Shown: piece after piece, positions 1,077-45,226 of the stretch
How the letters are laid out: each line of letters opens with the position of its first letter
Numbering within the stretch: the first letter of the stretch is position 1
Virus record (IMG/VR): IMGVR_UViG_3300032167_000004
Location: 160,001-224,000 of that record
Length of the DNA: 64,000 nucleotides
Strand: one strand, 5' to 3'
Origin: a virus
Taxonomy: Duplodnaviria > Caudoviricetes
Made by a program: the position numbers and the translations under genes
Notes under the pieces: generated by a model
What the model was told of the DNA's origin: nothing
Database searches by the model: none
Seen by the model: the letters and a program-made list of their open reading frames with translations, nothing else

Positions 1077-2037
1077 CTTATATGTTTAAATAAGTTTGTA
1101 ATTCTTATCCCTTTAAATTTTAAAGCTCTATATTACTATAGAGAACAGACTATATCATCAACCTATATACTGTTACCATATATAGGTTGCTCTCCATTTC
1201 CATCTTACAATTAAGATGTACTCTACTCAGTTACTCTCATAAGTATTTCTCTTATGATACCTTTTCGATAGTCGTTGAACCTTCCTTATATTTATTTACA
1301 ATATTAGGGTGTCGATCCCCTTTTCTTAAATGAGTTATTAAAGCTGTTAATCTAGTGTTATCTTGATCAATATATTTATCTAAAATATAACACTTTATAT
1401 AATCATTTTTGTATTTATATACATATATCATTTGACATAGTTCATCAATAAAATCATCACTATATAGTTTGTTACCTCCACCATTACTATGATAACCATT
1501 TTCAACAGCATCCATTTGGTTTAAGTAATTATTACTCCATTCTAGATTTTCATAATAATTTTCTAGTGAATCATTATTACGATGATGTACAAAATCAAAT
1601 TCATCAGGGTTAGGATTGGGAACAAATTCCCAAGCAACTAATCTATGTATATTAACATCAACATATTTTCGCTTTTTATCAACTTTATCAGACTTTATTA
1701 ATACTACTTGCAAATATGATCTAGTTTGACCATTATCTCTAACTTGAGTTTTTATTGCAGGTTTTAGTATTTTCTTTGTCTTTTTACTATAAACTCTACC
1801 ATGATTACTAATTAAATATGTATTAGGTTTAACAGTAGGGTATGTGACATATTTCCATACTTCAGGTAATTTTATGAAAATATATAACATTTTTATATCA
1901 TCTCCTTTCATTTAATATTTTTTCGACATTTATAATTTATAAAATATAAGGCTTGGCTGCTGATTATCCATATAGGATGTTCCAGCAATTAAGAGAGTTT
2001 TCTGTATATATTACATATACAGGGACTAGTTAATTTA
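1077..2037 (-). mobile_element. Group I intron in gyrA carrying an HNH homing endonuclease
   Basis: Core elements AATTGCTGGAA, AATCAGCAGCC, TTCAACGACTA and GATATAGTC. P1 pairs exon GGAU with GUCC (U.G at the splice site); terminal G at 1077. Splicing restores ...FGIG-Y-GLST... Confidence 0.93.
1252..1890 (-). CDS. Intron-encoded NUMOD4/HNH homing endonuclease
   Basis: EVWK..YLISNHGRV (NUMOD4) and HRLVAWEF.PNP...VHH.N.....N...NLEW (HNH). AAGGAG RBS favours the ATG at 1890. The 3' end (EGSTTIEKVS) overlaps intron element R. Confidence 0.9.
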   Translation of the reverse strand: MLYIFIKLPEVWKYVTYPTVKPNTYLISNHGRVYSKKTKKILKPAIKTQVRDNGQTRSYLQVVLIKSDKVDKKRKYVDVNIHRLVAWEFVPNPNPDEFDFVHHRNNDSLENYYENLEWSNNYLNQMDAVENGYHSNGGGNKLYSDDFIDELCQMIYVYKYKNDYIKCYILDKYIDQDNTRLTALITHLRKGDRHPNIVNKYKEGSTTIEKVS

Positions 2038-20208: not shown

Positions 20209-21099
20209 TCATTTTCTTTTGGAAATTTCATTCATAAATTGTGCTTGTGCGGTGCAAATTTGCTGTAAAGGAATATTCATAGTGGTAGATAGTTTACAGC
20301 TATCCAATTTAGTAAAGAGCTTCTTATCGTTCAAAGATAAATTGATAAGTTTTTTAGCTGCAAATTTAGAGTATACTTTGGTGCCATATTTATTTGTACT
20401 AACAATTTTGAAAGGTTTAGATTCAGGTTCCTTATTTTCAATTTCATCTTTGTTAGAAGTTTCAGATTCATTTTTAAGTATACGTTTCCACCGATATGCT
20501 GTACTTACAGCAATATTAAATTTTTTGGCGATTTGTTGAATGTCGGAATCGATAATAAATTTCTTATCATCATCGCTTAAAGTATTAATATTTAAACGCG
20601 GCTTTTTATCAGAGGATACAGTAGTTATACTGTCTTCTTTCTTAGGAGTAGGTTTATTGATAGTTTCTGGAGGAGAAGTCTTTTCAGAAATAGAGATAAT
20701 TTTATCTGTACTATATTTGAAATATTTAGCCTCCATTTCTAAGTTGTTTTCTAAACCTAAATAAATTTTAAGAGCAAGATCAATTTCGTCCATAACTCTT
20801 TCGGTTAAACATCCTAAGAAATTCGTTAATGATGATGCTGGTACTGGACGAATTTCATGTACAAGTGCAGTTGATAATTTATTCAATTCTAAATTAACAC
20901 ATACACCACTCTTTTGCGATTCAGATGCCGAGAATGGAATTACCGTAACAAATTTTCCTCGAACATTGACATTATTAATAACCAAAACTGGTCTATCTCC
21001 AATAGTTATTTGCATGTCTCTTTCATCATGAGTCCAGCTATCTTTCATTAACCACACTTGACCTTTTTTATAAGTTAAAAGATCTAATTTCTTACACAT
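20209..21099 (-). CDS. PemK/MazF-like domain fused to a C-terminal HTH region
   Basis: KGQVW...RPVLVINN...VTVIPFS...IRPV...LG.L....M.EID.AL.I.LGL, then IQQIAKKFNIAVSTAYRW. Confidence 0.72.
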   Translation of the reverse strand: MCKKLDLLTYKKGQVWLMKDSWTHDERDMQITIGDRPVLVINNVNVRGKFVTVIPFSASESQKSGVCVNLELNKLSTALVHEIRPVPASSLTNFLGCLTERVMDEIDLALKIYLGLENNLEMEAKYFKYSTDKIISISEKTSPPETINKPTPKKEDSITTVSSDKKPRLNINTLSDDDKKFIIDSDIQQIAKKFNIAVSTAYRWKRILKNESETSNKDEIENKEPESKPFKIVSTNKYGTKVYSKFAAKKLINLSLNDKKLFTKLDSCKLSTTMNIPLQQICTAQAQFMNEISKRK

Positions 21100-21756: not shown

Positions 21757-21854
21757 AAATCAAAAGATTATTTAAATATATATTATTTAAATAAGAAATA
21801 GTAATTAATTACTTACTATTTGAAAATATTTTTATTAATGAAGGAGAAATAATA

Positions 21855-21879
21855 ATGATTAAAATTTGTACTCTTGGCT
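21855..21879 (+). CDS. Tubulin/FtsZ-family (PhuZ/TubZ-like) protein, exon 1
   Basis: AAGGAG RBS; MIKICTLG plus one T joins exon 2 to give MIKICTLGFGNCGGQI (tubulin T1 loop). Confidence 0.88.
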
Positions 21880-22159
21880 TAATAATATAGGCCCTATACA
21901 TAGTGATATGTATAGCAAACTCTCTTAATTGCTGGAAACTCCTTAGAGCCTAAAGTACCAAAGTGTAAAAATCTTTAGGATTGGACAATCAGCAGCCAAG
22001 ACTCTTATTGTAAGAGTAAGGTTCAACGATCATACCCTTAAGTAAAGGGATAATAGAGAGCATCTTTATTTTAAAGATGATGATATGATCTGTGCTCTAT
22101 AGAAATATAGAGAACTTCGTCTGTATTAACTAGCTAATAGTTTTATCTTCTTTTTCAAA

Positions 22160-22169
22160 TATATATTAT
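22160..22169 (+). promoter_or_regulatory. Phage early-type promoter motif TATATATTAT inside the intron, upstream of tnpB (one of about 18 intergenic copies)
   Basis: Also on + at 21777, 26783, 28325, 31263, 32314, 36719, 37506, 45298, 47409, 48937 and on - at 2677, 3818, 7687, 20145, 21179, 56103, 56948, each oriented toward a downstream gene. Confidence 0.75.
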
Positions 22170-22207
22170 TTATTTAATATTTATATAAAGAAAGGAGGAT
22201 AAATCTT

Positions 22208-23446
22208 ATGTATAGAACTTTTAAACGTCAACTAATTAATTTATCTGAAGAAGATAAACAGTATTTATTCGATAATATGTGGTATAGACATCAACTATAC
22301 AACTTAGGTATTGAATGTATATTAGATTATCGTAAAGAGAATCCTAAATTACCTAGCAGTACATTATTATATCACATGATGAAAGAAAAAATATCTGATA
22401 AGTATAATAAAAATTATTATGCTGAAGGTATTGAGAGTGTTGTACGTGTTGATATATCTAGAGCAATTCGAAATACATATAATAATTATAAAAAATATGA
22501 TGATATTTCTGAACAATTTAGATTTCATCGATTTAATAAATATTATAGAAGTTTCGGATTTAGTGCTAGATCATATATTTCTTATGGTAAAATGAGTTCT
22601 AGAGTTAAATCTATGACTAATAATTCTATCACTATTCGTTTTAGAAAAGGTATTATTAAAACTTTTTATCATAATGAATTATCATGGAATAATAAGAATC
22701 ATCCTTATGAATTTGATATGTATGATGTAAAAGAGATCCATTTTCTATATGATCATGGTAAATTCTATATCATTCTCATGTGTGAGGTTAATTTTAAAAA
22801 TCCTTATAGATATAGAGATGATAGAATGAATCTTGCAGGTATTGATTTAGGAGAAAGAAATCCAGCGATGATATATGACGGTAAAGAATATATCAAGGTT
22901 AAGTTTCCTGATAAGAAGATTAAAAATATTCAAAACAGAATTAATGTTATGAATATAGCCTTATCAGGAAAAGTATATGGATCTAATAACTATTATAAGC
23001 TTAAAAATAAAATAGATAAGCTTTATAGAAAACAGGTTAATATACGTAAAGACTGGAGACATCAGAATTCTTATAAGATAACTAATTTATTTAAGACTAT
23101 AGTTGTAGATGAATTCCATAATTATATTATTACTAAAGATTCTAAAGAAAATATTAATAGTAAAGGAAAAAGAATTATTAATAGAGTAATGGAAGGTAGA
23201 GGTATATCTTATTTTATTGAAACATTAAAAGATATGTCAAATAAATATCGATGTGGATATTATTTAGCAGAACCTAATACCACTAGAACTTGCTCTAAAT
23301 GCGGTTTTATTAATGATCCAATACCTTTAAGTCAAGAATATTTAGTATGCGATAATTGTGGAAAGAAAATTCATCGAGATAAGAATGCTGCAAAGAATTG
23401 TTATAATCAACATAAGAGATATTATCATATTAATGTGTATATCTAA
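22208..23446 (+). CDS. tnpB: TnpB (IS200/IS605/IS607 OrfB) RNA-guided nuclease homologue
   Basis: N-terminal R.LYN helix, RuvC-I GIDLG, RuvC-II region IVVDEF, TTRTCSKCG...CDNCG zinc finger, RuvC-III HRD.NAA.N. Confidence 0.9.
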   Translation: MYRTFKRQLINLSEEDKQYLFDNMWYRHQLYNLGIECILDYRKENPKLPSSTLLYHMMKEKISDKYNKNYYAEGIESVVRVDISRAIRNTYNNYKKYDDISEQFRFHRFNKYYRSFGFSARSYISYGKMSSRVKSMTNNSITIRFRKGIIKTFYHNELSWNNKNHPYEFDMYDVKEIHFLYDHGKFYIILMCEVNFKNPYRYRDDRMNLAGIDLGERNPAMIYDGKEYIKVKFPDKKIKNIQNRINVMNIALSGKVYGSNNYYKLKNKIDKLYRKQVNIRKDWRHQNSYKITNLFKTIVVDEFHNYIITKDSKENINSKGKRIINRVMEGRGISYFIETLKDMSNKYRCGYYLAEPNTTRTCSKCGFINDPIPLSQEYLVCDNCGKKIHRDKNAAKNCYNQHKRYYHINVYI

Positions 23447-23536
23447 AAGTTGAATATAATGTAGCGTATAGGTTGATGCGTAATAGCTAGTTAAAAGAAG
23501 TTGTATTAGAGTAACGATCTAATATAAACACAACAG

Positions 23537-24642
23537 TTGGTAATTGTGGTGGTCAGATCACTGATCTGGCAATGGAACAGTATCAGATTCCTGGTATTGC
23601 AATCAATAGCTCTCAGAAAGATTTAGATAATATTACAAATGTTACTAAGTTTGTTTTGGGTGATTCTCTTGGTAGTGGAAAGAATAGAGATGTAGCAAAA
23701 AACTTTATTAAGAAGCATGTATCTGTTATGCTTCAGCAAGATAAACTTAATAGTATGATTAGTGAAAATGATATTGTTTTCATTATTTCTTCTATTGGTG
23801 GTGGTACCGGTTCTGGTATGGCTCCGATTACTTGTGATATTCTTTCAAGAAAATATCCTGAAAAGAGATTTATTCTTATTGAAGTTTATCCTCCTATTGG
23901 TGAGTCTCTTGCTGCACAGCAGAATAGTCTTGACTATCTTAAGGAAGTAAATAATAATATGCCCAATGTATGTTACATTGCATATGATAATAATAAGTAT
24001 ACTGATCTTACAACTCCTGAAATGATGCAGAAAGTAAACAATGAAATTGTTGATATGCTTCCTGTATTTAGAGGAGACTATTTCTATTCCACTCCTTTCA
24101 ATTCTATTGATGATAAGGATCTTCTGAGTATTGTTGGTACTCCTGGACGTATGGCTGTGTATATTCTTGATAATATTAAAGAAAAAGATTTCGATAATAA
24201 ATCTATTGAAGATGCTATGATCGATATTATTAAGAATAAGTCTGCTAACGTCGAACTTGATCGTGATAAGATTGTTAAGAAAATTGGTATTGTAACGAAT
24301 TTGAATACTAAACTTAATAAACTTATCGATCCCAATTATTCTAAGATTCAAGAATTAGTCGGTACTCCTATTGAATTATTTGAGCATGTATATATGACAA
24401 GTTCTGATAATGAAACTAATAGAATGATTCTTATTCTGGCTGGTTTATCTGTTCCTGATGACAGATTAACAAAGATGGTTCAGCGTATTGAATCTGGTTT
24501 GGAAGAACTTGCACATACTAAGGAATCTTCTGTATTGGGCAATACAGACACTGTCAGCATGGTTAAAGACCTGAGATCTAATAATATGCAGCAGAGCAGT
24601 GAATTTAGCCTCGAAGAACTTTTTGGTAAGTATGATAGCTAA
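23537..24642 (+). CDS. Tubulin/FtsZ-family protein, exon 2 (376 aa after splicing)
   Basis: GNCGGQI, AINS, GSGKNR and the GGGTGSG signature. Confidence 0.9.
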
Positions 24643-28709: not shown

Positions 28710-30482
28710 ATGAGCACACTTAATCTTAAAGAAGCATTAGAGCAAAAAGAAAAAGAATATAGTTTCTGTGATGATTTGTTTGGTATGACATTACTTACAA
28801 ATCCAGGATACATTAGTTCTAGTAGATCTCTAATGTTTACTAGTCATCTTAGACAGTTTGTTAATCTTGTCAATCCTGATATTCCTAAAGTATTTACTAA
28901 CTATGAAAATAGCGTTGGTAAATTATCTACAGGATATTATGAAGCAAAGCATAATTATGAAGTATATGCAAAAATTCCTAGATTTACAACAGAAGGATTA
29001 GATAATCATCTTTATTTGATGTTTATTTATGATAAGAAACATGATAAATATGATGTAATTACAAAAAGTGTTGTAGAAAATCTAACAGAAAAGTTTGGAT
29101 ATGGATATAATACTGAAGTAATGGATAATAAAGATGTTGGTGATGAAATTGATAAAGGAGAAGTTCTTTATAGATCAACATCTTATGATGAAGATATGAA
29201 CTATCGTTATGGTACAAATGTTAAAGTTATGTATGCATTAGATAATAACACGATTGAAGATGCTATCATTTGTTCCGAATCCTTTGCTAAAAGACTTGTT
29301 AGTAAAGAGATTGAAGAGGTTAAAGTTAGTCTTAATGACAATGACTTACTTTGTAATATCTATGGTGATAGTTCTAATTATAAAACTTTCCCTGATATTG
29401 GTGAATACACAAAAGATAAAATTCTTTGTGCAAAGCGTCGTATTCATAATAGTCAGGTTTTATATGATTTGAAGAAATCTAATCTTAGAAAGATTAATTT
29501 TATGAATGATAACTTATATTATATTGATGGTAAGATTGTTGATATAGTTATCTATTCAAATAAAACATTGGATGAAATTCCTGATAATACTTTTAATAAT
29601 CAAATTAGAAAATATCTAATTATGCAAAATGAATTTTATCAAAAAGTATATGACACTTGTAAAGAGATTATTAAAAGTGGTAGTAAGTATAGTAATGATA
29701 TTGCTTATTATTTTAAGAAAGCAAAAGATATATTAGATGAAAATACTAAATGGAGAGAAGAATCCTCTGTATTTAGTAATATTGTTATTGAATTTCTTGT
29801 TGAAAGAGATTCACCTCTTACTATTGGACAAAAGATTTCTGGACGACAGGGTAATAAGGGTGTCGTAAGTAAAATTTTACCAGATGATCAAATGCCATAT
29901 CTTGAAAATGGGGAAAAGGTAGAAGTGATTTTAAATAGTTTGGGTGTAATCAACAGACTCAACCCTATGCAGATATACGAGCTTAGCATTAATTTTATCT
30001 GTAATCGAGTTGTAGATAAATTAAAAACTTATACTACACTAAAAGAAAAAGAAACATTATTCTTTGATATTATTAAACGATTCAATGAAGATGAAGAGAA
30101 AGTATTAAAGATTTATTATAAAAATTTAAAGACTAAAGAAAAGAAAGAATTCTTTGAAGATATCTTTAAGAATGGTATTTATATTCATATGCGTCCTTTC
30201 TGGGAAGAAAAAGAAGCATTATTTGATATCATTAGAGATATTTATAAAGATTATGATTTTATTAAACCTGTTGATGTTTATATTAATAAATGGGGTAGAA
30301 AGATTAAGATTATGAAACCTTTGATTGTTAGTGATCTTTATATGATTAAACTGAAGCAATCTTCTAAGAAAGGTTTCTCTGCAAGATCTACAGGTTCTCT
30401 TAATAGAAGAGGTATTCCTGATAAGAGTTATAAGAATAAAGTTCATCAAGATCTGTATTCTAGCACACCGATACGCATCGGC
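28710..30482 (+). CDS. Phage multisubunit RNA polymerase beta, C-terminal part, exon 1
   Basis: R.LM...[44 protein letters not shown] and PIRIG motifs. Confidence 0.92.
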
Positions 30483-30716
30483 TTGATCGAGAACCGATGT
30501 AAAACTCTCTTAATTGCTGGAAAATCCTTATAGGACAATCAGCAGCCAAGACTTATTTTAGTAAGTAAGGTTCAACGACTATAAAAATTATAAATATAAT
30601 TTTAATGGAGAGCTTCTTATAAAAAGAATGAAGATATAGTCTAATCTATATAGATAATATATAGTAGTTATTAAGTTAACAGTATAGAATTAATCATTCT
30701 ATATGAATATATAATG
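30483..30716 (+). ncRNA. ORF-less group I intron (~234 nt) in the RNAP beta gene
   Basis: Same core elements as the other two introns; splicing gives PIRIG-DQE (RpoB RFGEME region). Boundaries are uncertain by 1 nt. Confidence 0.88.
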
Positions 30717-45024: not shown

Positions 45025-45113
45025 GGAGAGTTGTCCGAGTGGTTTAAGGAGCGAAACTTGAAATTTCGTGATGGGGAAACCCACCAAGGGTCCAAATCCC
45101 TTACTCTCCGCCA
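45025..45113 (+). tRNA. tRNA-Ser(TGA)
   Basis: Acceptor GGAGAGT/ACTCTCC-G-CCA; anticodon arm CGAAA-CTTGAAA-TTTCG; long variable arm. Confidence 0.9.
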
Positions 45114-45151
45114 TAAAAAGAGGGTAATATTTTTTACCCTCTTTTTCATAT

Positions 45152-45226
45152 TGAGACGTCGTCAAGTGGTAAGACAACAGACTTTGACTCTGTCACTCGC
45201 AAGTTCGAATCTTGCCGTCTCAGCCA
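45152..45226 (+). tRNA. tRNA-Gln(TTG)
   Basis: TGAGACG/CGTCTCA-G-CCA; anticodon loop CTTTGAC; T-loop TTCGAAT. Confidence 0.93.

Follow-up and report, generated by a model that had tools for sequence, protein, structure and literature searches.

IStrons, their occurrence in phages and homing by IStrons that encode ORF B only are already in the literature (PMC4227781; 10.1101/2023.11.20.567912; PMC13565253), and the RNA-guided homing of transposase-less IStrons is a published hypothesis awaiting test (PMC13565253). Group A (IS200/IS605-type) IStrons, exemplified by CdISt1/CdiIStron of Clostridioides difficile, resemble the phage intron described here in several respects: a 5' group I core precedes a 3' tnpB, a stem joins both sides of the IS part, the 5' exon ends with T, the target motif ends with GAT (TTGAT as published), the element ends with xCAG, a guide RNA within the tnpB 3' UTR overlaps the 3' splice site, and most copies have no intact TnpA. 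The phage intron differs from them in that it carries no TnpA fragment at all, is found as a single copy per genome, ends with ACAG rather than TCAG and has an internal promoter motif of phage type together with a hairpin at the ribosome binding site (RBS) of tnpB. Among the bacterial TnpBs found, none exceeds about 32% identity to that of the phage, mostly in the C-terminal half only, and whereas CdISt1 occurs in assorted bacterial genes, the phage introns occur, where the gene can be named, in conserved phage genes.

Group B (IS607-type) IStrons, exemplified by CboIStron and by CbISt3 and CbISt4 of the Clostridium botulinum phages c-st and D-1873, are likewise borne by phages or plasmids, and some of them encode ORF B only. 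Their guide RNA also includes a pseudoknot between a stem-loop and the 3' end, and its terminal stem-loop competes with splicing. For CboIStron, TnpB-driven homing was demonstrated experimentally. However, Group B elements insert after GG (5' exon ending with G, 3' end CGG, TAM TGGG), whereas the tubulin 5' exon ends with the canonical U, and the TnpB of c-st (L031) is 32% identical to that of the phage in the C-terminal third only.

Phage group I introns that encode protein homing endonucleases (T4 td/I-TevI and the PhiPA3 gp210 intron) are comparable as they also reside in conserved phage genes, as the tubulin-intron phage itself carries an HNH gene in the same intron family and as the outcome expected from co-infection is homing or exclusion; in contrast, target recognition in the tubulin intron would be by RNA. 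ISDra2 TnpB and its omega/re RNA share with the phage system a full-length fold, the RuvC and zinc-finger layout and a guide located directly beyond the right end of the element. They differ by a sequence identity of only 16% and by RuvC motif II, where the tubulin-intron TnpB has Asp for Glu, and it is the phage element that is embedded in a ribozyme.

The tubulin intron belongs to the known class of IStrons, as a member found in a phage: the class and its presence in phages are published, and homing by forms that have no transposase is published or proposed. New here are the divergent clade, the shared intron core, the covarying pseudoknot, the RBS hairpin with its promoter motif and the empty alleles with a perfect match. 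Our reading, to which we attach a probability of roughly 0.6, is that the locus is a transposase-less IStron in a jumbo phage, i.e. a group I intron in which tnpB and the scaffold of a guide RNA make up the 3' part and which would home by RNA-guided cutting.

A group I intron in a phage tubulin gene

In the window (the whole stretch of DNA analysed, 64 kb), the tubulin gene of a gut jumbo phage is interrupted by a group I intron. The features of the gene and of the ribozyme are as follows:

21775-21786, + strand: phage promoter-like motif AATATATATTAT, 80 nt 5' of the tubulin start codon
21855-21879, + strand: tubulin exon 1 (codons 1-8 and base 1 of codon 9; 3' end GGCT)
21880-23536, + strand: 1657-nt group I intron of IStron architecture, terminal G at 23536
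21870-22112, + strand: ribozyme core P1-P9 (Rfam RF00028, Intron_gpI; 83.4 bits, E 5e-22)
22091-22094, + strand: 5' strand of P9.0, UGUG (partner CACA, 23529-23532, by cofolding)
22113-22136, + strand: long-range stem, 5' strand, which loops out the tnpB cassette
23484-23502, + strand: long-range stem, 3' strand, partner of 22113-22136
23529-23536, + strand: intron tail CACAACAG (CACA, 3' strand of P9.0; CAAC, 23531-23534, pseudoknot strand 2)
23537-24642, + strand: tubulin exon 2, PhuZ-like tubulin (Pfam Tubulin, 2.5e-15; PHROG tubulin PhuZ)

Translation starts at the ATG at 21855, exon 2 begins with TTGG at 23537 and the frame is kept, so that the joined exons are predicted to encode a tubulin of 376 aa. 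Uninterrupted homologues (93% identical) have the same length and N-terminus (MVKICTLGF); these 376-aa proteins start with MVKICTLGFGNCGGQ, exactly as the predicted spliced product does. The N-terminal glycine-rich loop GFGNCGGQ is whole only in this predicted spliced product, which with this loop and its tubulin/FtsZ GTPase domain is a PhuZ-like tubulin. The ends of the element coincide with the splice sites: at the sequence level, its removal restores the host ORF exactly and the empty alleles align base for base. A gene encoding a UvsX-like recombinase is located 3.6 kb downstream in the same phage.

A reading of the IS607 type, in which the two TTGG repeats mark the boundaries (empty site CTTGG followed by TAATTG), was rejected: joining at the GG boundaries gives TLGNCGG, which is contradicted by the homologues (LGFGNCGG, not LGNCGG), and the insertion mode of Group B is not found here.

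The match to RF00028 spans model positions 1-253, i.e. the whole model. It was detected in a scan of 311 nt; it went undetected when the whole 64-kb window (gathering threshold) or 2 kb (E-value mode) was scanned, which is an effect of filtering and not absence of the core. In the RF00028 alignment, P1 is formed by exon GGCU and the intron guide sequence AGGCC, the last U of exon 1 being opposite a G. The P9 hairpin of the core corresponds to 22095-22112. The 5' splice site with its U-G pair, the terminal G and P9.0, the latter altered on both sides in the relatives L005 and L007, are those of a group I intron, which is predicted to be self-splicing. The long-range stem, which includes the 11-mers 22126-22136/23484-23494 and a CTTC/GAAG extension, occupies the same position with a different sequence in every relative, i.e. 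it covaries. Coordinates, Rfam score and homologues thus bear out the earlier note, in which the gene was proposed to be split after codon 8 by a 1657-nt group I intron, and so does the stem for the proposal that a 412-aa TnpB lies after the core and is looped out.

The tnpB cassette and its candidate guide RNA

The looped-out cassette and the sequences that follow it include:

22142-22203, + strand: RBS-sequestering hairpin of tnpB (AAGGAGG at 22192-22198; MFE -15.9 kcal/mol, z -4.1)
22158-22169, + strand: promoter-like motif in the upper part of the RBS hairpin (from motif statistics)
22208-23446, + strand: tnpB, 412 aa (OrfB_IS605 and Cas12f1-like TNB domain matches)
23464-23481, + strand: stem-loop HP-A, candidate guide-RNA nexus (stem covariation)
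23503-23525, + strand: stem-loop HP-B, 8 bp, conserved loop GUAACGA, 3'-terminal stem-loop of the candidate scaffold
23537-23556, + strand: putative guide/target, first 20 nt of exon 2, 3'-adjacent to the scaffold

The intron contains the tnpB gene on its own strand, downstream of the core and P9, only 95 nt separating P9 from the start of tnpB. In a Pfam scan the tnpB product matched OrfB_IS605 and TNB only, the N-terminal helix-turn-helix family being unmatched. The product also has matches among PDB sequences. The AlphaFold2 model shows a full-length TnpB fold (pLDDT 83.7), whose best Foldseek match is ISDra2 TnpB (8h1j; E 1e-18, TM 0.63/0.70, 411 columns). The RuvC residues D213, D301 and D391 and the CxxC pairs 362/365 and 381/384 are present, and these three Asp and four Cys are invariant in 11 clade proteins that share 32-57% identity with the phage TnpB. 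Judged from its sequence and its model, the protein is a putative RNA-guided nuclease with RuvC triad, zinc finger and complete TnpB fold. As RuvC motif II has Asp for Glu (D301 aligns with E278 of ISDra2) and the Glu next to D301 is not conserved, its activity is an assumption.

Hairpins equivalent to that at the RBS are present in eight of nine loci (z -4 to -10), the relative L004 having only a weak one. The promoter-like motif is enriched: 29 copies with at most one mismatch versus 15.9 ± 4.0 expected, and 15 of the 19 copies of A[AGT]TATATATTAT are located 31-114 nt 5' of a same-strand ORF. The genes encoding I-TevI and other T4 homing endonucleases offer a parallel, since they have their own promoter and an RBS sequestered in the pre-mRNA (PMC2988022). 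This suggests that phages may regulate TnpB as T4 regulates homing endonucleases, which would explain how a single DNA segment can support splicing as well as the making of a guide RNA.

In its layout, the 3' UTR of tnpB resembles the IStron guide RNAs that have been published, and it probably contains such an RNA. All cells of HP-B are paired and 6/8 of its pairs are changed on both sides. For HP-A and HP-B together, 92% of cells are paired (73% in shuffles) and 10/18 pairs are changed on both sides, in tests that involve 5-9 sequences and stem-loops chosen partly by eye. The loop of HP-A (GUUG, 23472-23475) forms pseudoknot strand 1, which would pair with CAAC at 23531-23534. The summed complementarity of cognate loops and tails is 33, versus a maximum of 20 among 265 non-cognate pairings, and none of 20000 loop shuffles reached the cognate value. 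This complementarity covaries across five tail types, in a register that keeps a constant distance to the terminal G. The pseudoknot stops 0-1 nt short of the 3' splice site; no convincing pseudoknot was found in the relative L010. It was this loop-restricted test that discriminated, a longest-complement matrix across the whole 3' region being non-discriminating in such AT-rich sequence, and the pseudoknot was left out of the pair-count scoring because MAFFT puts the loop of L012 one column off register. No Rfam family matches the 3' module.

As in IStrons, the scaffold would therefore lie in the tnpB 3' UTR, with the 3' strand of its pseudoknot abutting the 3' splice site. Since pseudoknot covariation places the scaffold end at this site, the guide would be the start of exon 2, in line with the initial proposal; the first 16 nt of exon 2 are unique in the 165.8-kb record. 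The validated guide RNA of CboIStron is alike in having pseudoknot strand 1 within a stem-loop, strand 2 in 3' bases on which splicing depends as well, and a terminal stem-loop that decides the fate of the RNA (PMC13521648; 10.1101/2023.11.20.567912).

An old lineage, its empty alleles and its candidate target-adjacent motif

The phage TnpB belongs to a divergent metagenomic clade of about 45 clusters at 50% identity. A scan of viral contigs with this single protein found no relative, and scans with an alignment, run on viral, genome and metagenome contigs, found distant TnpBs only (at most 33% identical); the close clade was recovered only from large protein collections. All 10 clade proteins with fetched DNA (the TnpB of the window, P0002-P0008, P0010 and P0012) are encoded directly behind the same intron core, and no tnpB copy was found outside introns. 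The clade occupies at least seven different genes, with one copy in the genome of the tubulin-intron phage. Those that can be named are conserved phage genes; PHROG matches were obtained for five exon-2 products, namely SbcC-like, NAD ligase, RNA polymerase beta (twice) and endonuclease. An RNA polymerase beta gene with an ORF-less intron was also observed.

The tubulin intron core had been described as near-identical to those of the two other introns of this phage, and the phage's own intron family as having captured TnpB. Over aligned positions, the identity is 79-83%, which is a family-level relationship only, versus 85-87% with the TnpB-linked introns of other phages. The association of intron and TnpB goes back to an old, shared lineage that occurs in many phage genes, and is not a capture specific to one phage. 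Nor does TnpB take the position of a homing endonuclease, as was first thought: the HNH ORF of the sister intron is in the P6 region, whereas tnpB is 3' of P9, where it must be as the scaffold has to abut exon 2.

The intron-less alleles that TnpB was proposed to cut do exist in close relatives, which are 89% identical in DNA. In the intron-free tubulin alleles L051 and L052, the first 22 nt of exon 2 are identical to those of the intron-bearing gene, so that a guide would match at 22/22 positions. Natural empty alleles are of two types, some having this perfect target and others a diverged one.

Exon 1 ends with GAT at 5/6 insertion sites, and NNGAT is also found at the empty homologous sites. 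The intron-bearing tubulin allele ends with GCT, and its C at -2 is matched by a changed intron guide sequence, both bases differing jointly from those of the relatives. On sequence grounds, the target-adjacent motif is likely NNGAT (TGGAT in the empty alleles) rather than TTGGCT, the end of exon 1 favoured in the earlier note. As GAT also base-pairs with GUC, the conserved guide sequence of the intron, and is shared by the HNH-bearing sister intron, it may reflect the ribozyme and not a TnpB motif.

Proposed homing and its alternatives

Taken as a whole, the lifecycle of the intron can be pictured as follows. Transcripts from the tubulin promoter would fold as the ribozyme, with the RBS of tnpB locked in its hairpin, and would then splice. 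The internal promoter-like motif would yield transcripts that start inside the RBS hairpin and do not include the ribozyme; on these short RNAs, TnpB would be translated and the scaffold would stay joined to exon 2, the resulting guide RNA reading TTGGTAATTGTGGTGG... TnpB and its guide would cut the intron-free tubulin alleles of co-infecting relatives beside NNGAT, the predicted target being TTGGTAATTGTGGTGGTCAG with the NNGAT motif at its 5' side. Repair from intron-bearing genomes would copy the intron in, and an unrepaired break would harm the competitor.

Homing alone fails to explain the spread into at least seven genes. A broader view, which we hold tentatively and at somewhat less than even odds, is that of a lineage restricted to phages, where TnpB with its guide RNA took over from both transposase and protein homing endonuclease as the engine of group I intron mobility, with transposase-independent reach into new conserved genes that provide an NNGAT end. 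Making two transcripts would resolve the known conflict between the ribozyme and the guide RNA: one is long and spliced, with the RBS of tnpB sequestered, whereas the other is short, starts at an internal phage promoter, is translated and has scaffold and guide still joined.

The need for some route to new sites could also be answered by a classical IStron whose TnpA is supplied in trans by the host or by another element, TnpB re-installing copies after excision and phage-to-phage homing playing no role. We consider this unlikely, even though NNGAT resembles the TTGAT of IS605-type IStrons (PMC13565253) and many bacterial IStrons also have no TnpA (PMC4227781), ORF-B-only elements being accepted members of the class. 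Neither a Y1 or serine transposase (PF01797, PF00239) nor a remnant of TnpA was found in the intron or in the rest of the 165.8-kb record, as had already been noticed from the sequence. The fetched relatives have neither a called TnpA gene nor room for one between P9 and tnpB, there is only one copy per genome, and the 5' hairpin (P2) is unlike the 3' hairpin (HP-B), in contrast to the ends of IS605.

It is more doubtful still that the TnpB and its RNA are an inherited passenger that no longer cuts DNA, within an intron that splices and persists since precise loss is rare. The Asp in RuvC motif II would fit this, as would the tubulin allele being identical in every sample seen. However, the catalytic and zinc-binding residues are invariant over the 11 aligned clade proteins despite their divergence, the pseudoknot and both stem-loops are maintained by covariation, the RBS hairpin and promoter motif are conserved, and the clade has the size of about 45 clusters.

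Least probable is a role of TnpB mainly in RNA regulation, binding of the 3' module tuning tubulin splicing, or in inter-phage warfare, in which cutting of a competing phage's tubulin gene would exclude that phage with no copying of the intron: the same tail bases pair alternatively as P9.0 or pseudoknot, so that splicing should be blocked by bound TnpB, as is the case for CboIStron, and the intron endonuclease of the jumbo phage PhiPA3 is a weapon against PhiKZ (PMC11620839), but regulation does not need an intact nuclease, and the 89% DNA identity of the relatives and the nearby UvsX-like recombinase favour repair by copying.

Under the homing reading, the locus is a natural test of the spread of an intron through RNA-guided cutting of intron-free gene copies. 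It supplies the parts for such a test, namely an intron-bearing phage, natural empty alleles, a compact TnpB and a comparative guide-RNA model with defined pseudoknot bases. The clade is also a source of small and very AT-rich TnpB systems that are distant from those characterised so far. The intron-bearing phage is common in animal-gut samples.

Tubulin gene interrupted by a TnpB-bearing group I intron

The tubulin gene starts at 21855; its frame is broken after 25 nt at GGCT/TAATAA (21879/21880) and resumes at ACAACAG/TTGG (23536/23537), in phase with the ORF ending at 24642. An Rfam group I model covers 21870-22112 end to end (83.4 bits); wider Rfam scans failed to detect this core. Exon joining yields MIKICTLGFGNCGGQ... 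and a predicted tubulin of 376 aa, the length of the nearest uninterrupted tubulins, which are 93% and 91% identical to it and begin with MVKICTLGFGNCGGQ. As the DNA of these homologues spans the junction (ACTCTTGGAT/TTGGTAATTGTGGTGGTCAGAT), the predicted splice junction is settled at the sequence level by this comparison. A G in the internal guide AGGCC is the pairing partner of the final U of exon 1; the last base of the intron is a G. The earlier proposal of a tubulin gene split by a group I intron is thus borne out by the Rfam match and the restored ORF.

The ORF located at 22208-23446 (412 aa), only 95 nt after P9, matches the OrfB_IS605 and TNB domains and aligns with ISDra2 TnpB in its RuvC half. 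Its AlphaFold2 model (pLDDT 83.7) shows full-length matches to TnpB structures. D213, D301, D391 and four cysteines are invariant in 11 clade proteins (32–57% identical to the window TnpB), ISDra2 TnpB having its catalytic Glu at the position of D301. The GC content of tnpB is low and equal to that of the surrounding phage genes. The 165.8-kb IMG/VR virus record that includes the window (completeness rating 67%) shows no transposase of the Y1 or serine type, in agreement with the transposase-less TnpB that had been reported.

Taken as a whole, the TnpB-bearing tubulin intron is a real finding and the core reading of the earlier note, a candidate RNA-guided homing intron, is reasonable. IStrons, including forms carrying only ORF B and two in Clostridium botulinum phages, are already published (PMC4227781). 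Homing by TnpB was demonstrated experimentally for CboIStron and the spread of TnpA-less IStrons via intron homing was already proposed (PMC13565253). What is new here is a divergent intron-tied TnpB clade, whose host gene is a conserved phage gene wherever it can be named, together with comparative evidence for the candidate guide RNA of this clade, a proposed T4-like expression logic for the intron tnpB, and natural candidate target alleles for the tubulin TnpB.

Related introns and their host genes

The relatives of the window TnpB are exclusively metagenomic and form about 45 clusters at 50% identity (full-length scores >190 bits in an exhaustive profile search). No TnpB closer than about 33% was found in species-representative bacterial genomes, IMG/VR or JGI metagenomes. 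DNA was fetched for nine further clade proteins and, in all ten cases including the window, tnpB sits behind the same P7-P9 sequence of the group I core. Several short contigs start within this core, as would happen where assemblies break at a repeated intron. Besides tubulin, the host genes identified from the product of exon 2 encode an SbcC-like protein, NAD ligase, RNA polymerase beta (twice) and an endonuclease. A related TnpB intron also lies inside a polyphosphate kinase gene (L009:1632-3260). Its 3' module is lost a few bases past the tnpB stop, where the sequence passes into a fragment of a histidine-kinase ATPase and a tRNA; the locus represents either a copy truncated at the 3' end or a chimera of low-coverage assembly. 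Copies of tnpB with IS ends at non-intron sites, which according to the earlier note would indicate passive IS insertion, were not found; the 165.8-kb record holds a single tnpB copy, and the 16 nt of guide sequence occur in it only once.

This record contains at least four group I matches besides the tubulin intron. Two sister introns lie in the window:

1126-2036, minus strand: HNH-bearing group I intron in a GyrA/topoisomerase-like gene (ORF ~1285-1890)
30460-30686, plus strand: ORF-less group I intron in an RNA polymerase beta subunit gene (Rfam, 76 bits)

The first is inserted after ...ATTGGAT, and its P6 region houses the ORF for a homing endonuclease of the HNH type; in the 5' part and in P7-P9 this intron is much like the TnpB-linked introns (88% to the core of the relative L003). 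The tail of the second, GTTAACAG (30679-30686), is similar to that of the TnpB introns. The cores of these sister introns had been described as near-identical to that of the tubulin intron, which overstates an identity of only 79–83%, compared with 85–87% for TnpB-linked introns of other phages. Both lack HP-A, a stem-loop of the tnpB 3' UTR, because they have no such UTR. Elsewhere in the record, beyond the window, the minus strand has additional incomplete group I matches and P3 motifs (G000:C1:137925-139751), which point to at least two more putative introns. In a related phage, three introns of the same family occur within 5 kb of RNA polymerase beta genes (L005:8640-10220), one TnpB-bearing, one bearing an HNH_3 ORF and one ORF-less, the same three types as in the window phage. 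Group I core motifs also precede distant tnpB genes (28–31% identity in the C-terminal half) in three IMG/VR contigs (L018, L020 and L029); the occurrence of phage IStrons therefore extends beyond this clade and the pair from C. botulinum phages.

Candidate guide RNA and target alleles

The tnpB cassette sits inside a long-range stem (22113-22136 with 23484-23502) that follows P9 (22095-22112); such a stem is found in every relative, each time with its own sequence and with up to ~45 bp. The tnpB stop is followed by HP-A (23464-23481), the 3' strand of the long stem, a second stem-loop, HP-B (23503-23525, loop GUAACGA), and the tail CACAACAG. The stems of HP-A and HP-B each show covariation (92% of cells paired vs 73% in shuffles; both-side changes in 10 of 18 pairs). 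The tail pairs with UGUG (22091-94) directly before P9, a P9.0 that positions the terminal G. It is also complementary to the HP-A loop, whose sequence follows that of the tail across loci, L010 being the exception.

HP-A loops and intron tails at five loci
Window: loop GUUG, tail CAAC
L012: loop GGUAU, tail AUACC
L005: loop AUACGU, tail ACGUAU
L007: loop UAGUAUA, tail UAUACUA
L216: loop UAUCAUGU, tail ACAUGAUA

In all five, the pairing ends 0–1 nt before the terminal G. The summed cognate complementarity is 33, a value reached in 0 of 20000 loop shuffles; among 265 non-cognate pairings the maximum was 20. In the guide RNA of CboIStron, a stem-loop provides strand 1 of a pseudoknot and strand 2 consists of 3' bases that splicing needs as well, the balance being set by the terminal stem-loop (10.1101/2023.11.20.567912; PMC13521648). 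The tnpB 3' UTR of the window has the same layout, the evidence being experimental there and comparative here. By this likeness, the guide-RNA scaffold would end at the 3' splice site and exon 2 would be the candidate guide.

On the target side, exon 1 has a terminal GAT at five of the six sites (TGGAT, TGGAT, CGGAT, GAGAT and CTGAT; GTGGT in L005), resembling the TTGAT of IS605-type IStrons (PMC13565253), but the conserved intron guide, GUC, base-pairs with GAU as well and GGAT also occurs in the HNH intron, so that the motif is confounded with the need of the ribozyme. Three of those genes are uninterrupted in the window phage, and there too GAT stands at the homologous site. The window allele combines GGCT with the guide AGGCC (21891-21895), whereas intron-free alleles have GGAT and the guide of relatives is AGUCC. 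Position -2 of exon 1 (21878) is C here and A in all empty alleles; the exon and guide changes are paired and keep P1 intact. The exon change also alters the putative NNGAT motif of the window allele. One empty tubulin allele (L051/L052) is syntenic, with 89% DNA identity, and matches the predicted guide at 22 of 22 bases; in another (L053), three of the first eight bases differ.

Expression of tnpB and phage context

At eight of nine loci, the ribosome-binding site ahead of tnpB is base-paired to a U/C-rich strand lying further upstream, forming a hairpin (z -4 to -10). Its upper part contains AATATATATTAT, a motif enriched in the window (29 observed vs 15.9 expected). In its degenerate form, this is an intergenic, oriented and promoter-like motif of the phage:

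Window-wide, e.g. 21775, 22158, 32312, 36717, 37504, 45296: A[AGT]TATATATTAT

Fifteen of 19 copies of the promoter-like motif lie 31–114 nt upstream of same-strand ORFs, and one is upstream of the tubulin gene. In T4, late promoters within introns yield transcripts without the inhibitory strand (PMC2988022); the motif inside the hairpin of tnpB mirrors this arrangement.

A PhuZ-like tubulin, split multisubunit RNA polymerase beta genes, a UvsX-like recombinase and NAD ligase identify a jumbo phage. A TnpB identical to that of the window is present on other contigs of up to 263.8 kb, and the DNA runs containing the phage come from animal faeces. A 296-aa ORF (20209-21099, minus strand) combines an N-terminal PemK/MazF-like toxin domain with a C-terminal helix-turn-helix; no antitoxin partner was identified for it. 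It also adjoins the tubulin gene in the related phage L053. The window further contains tRNA genes:

45025-45223, plus strand: two tRNA genes (Rfam, 52.6 and 63 bits)
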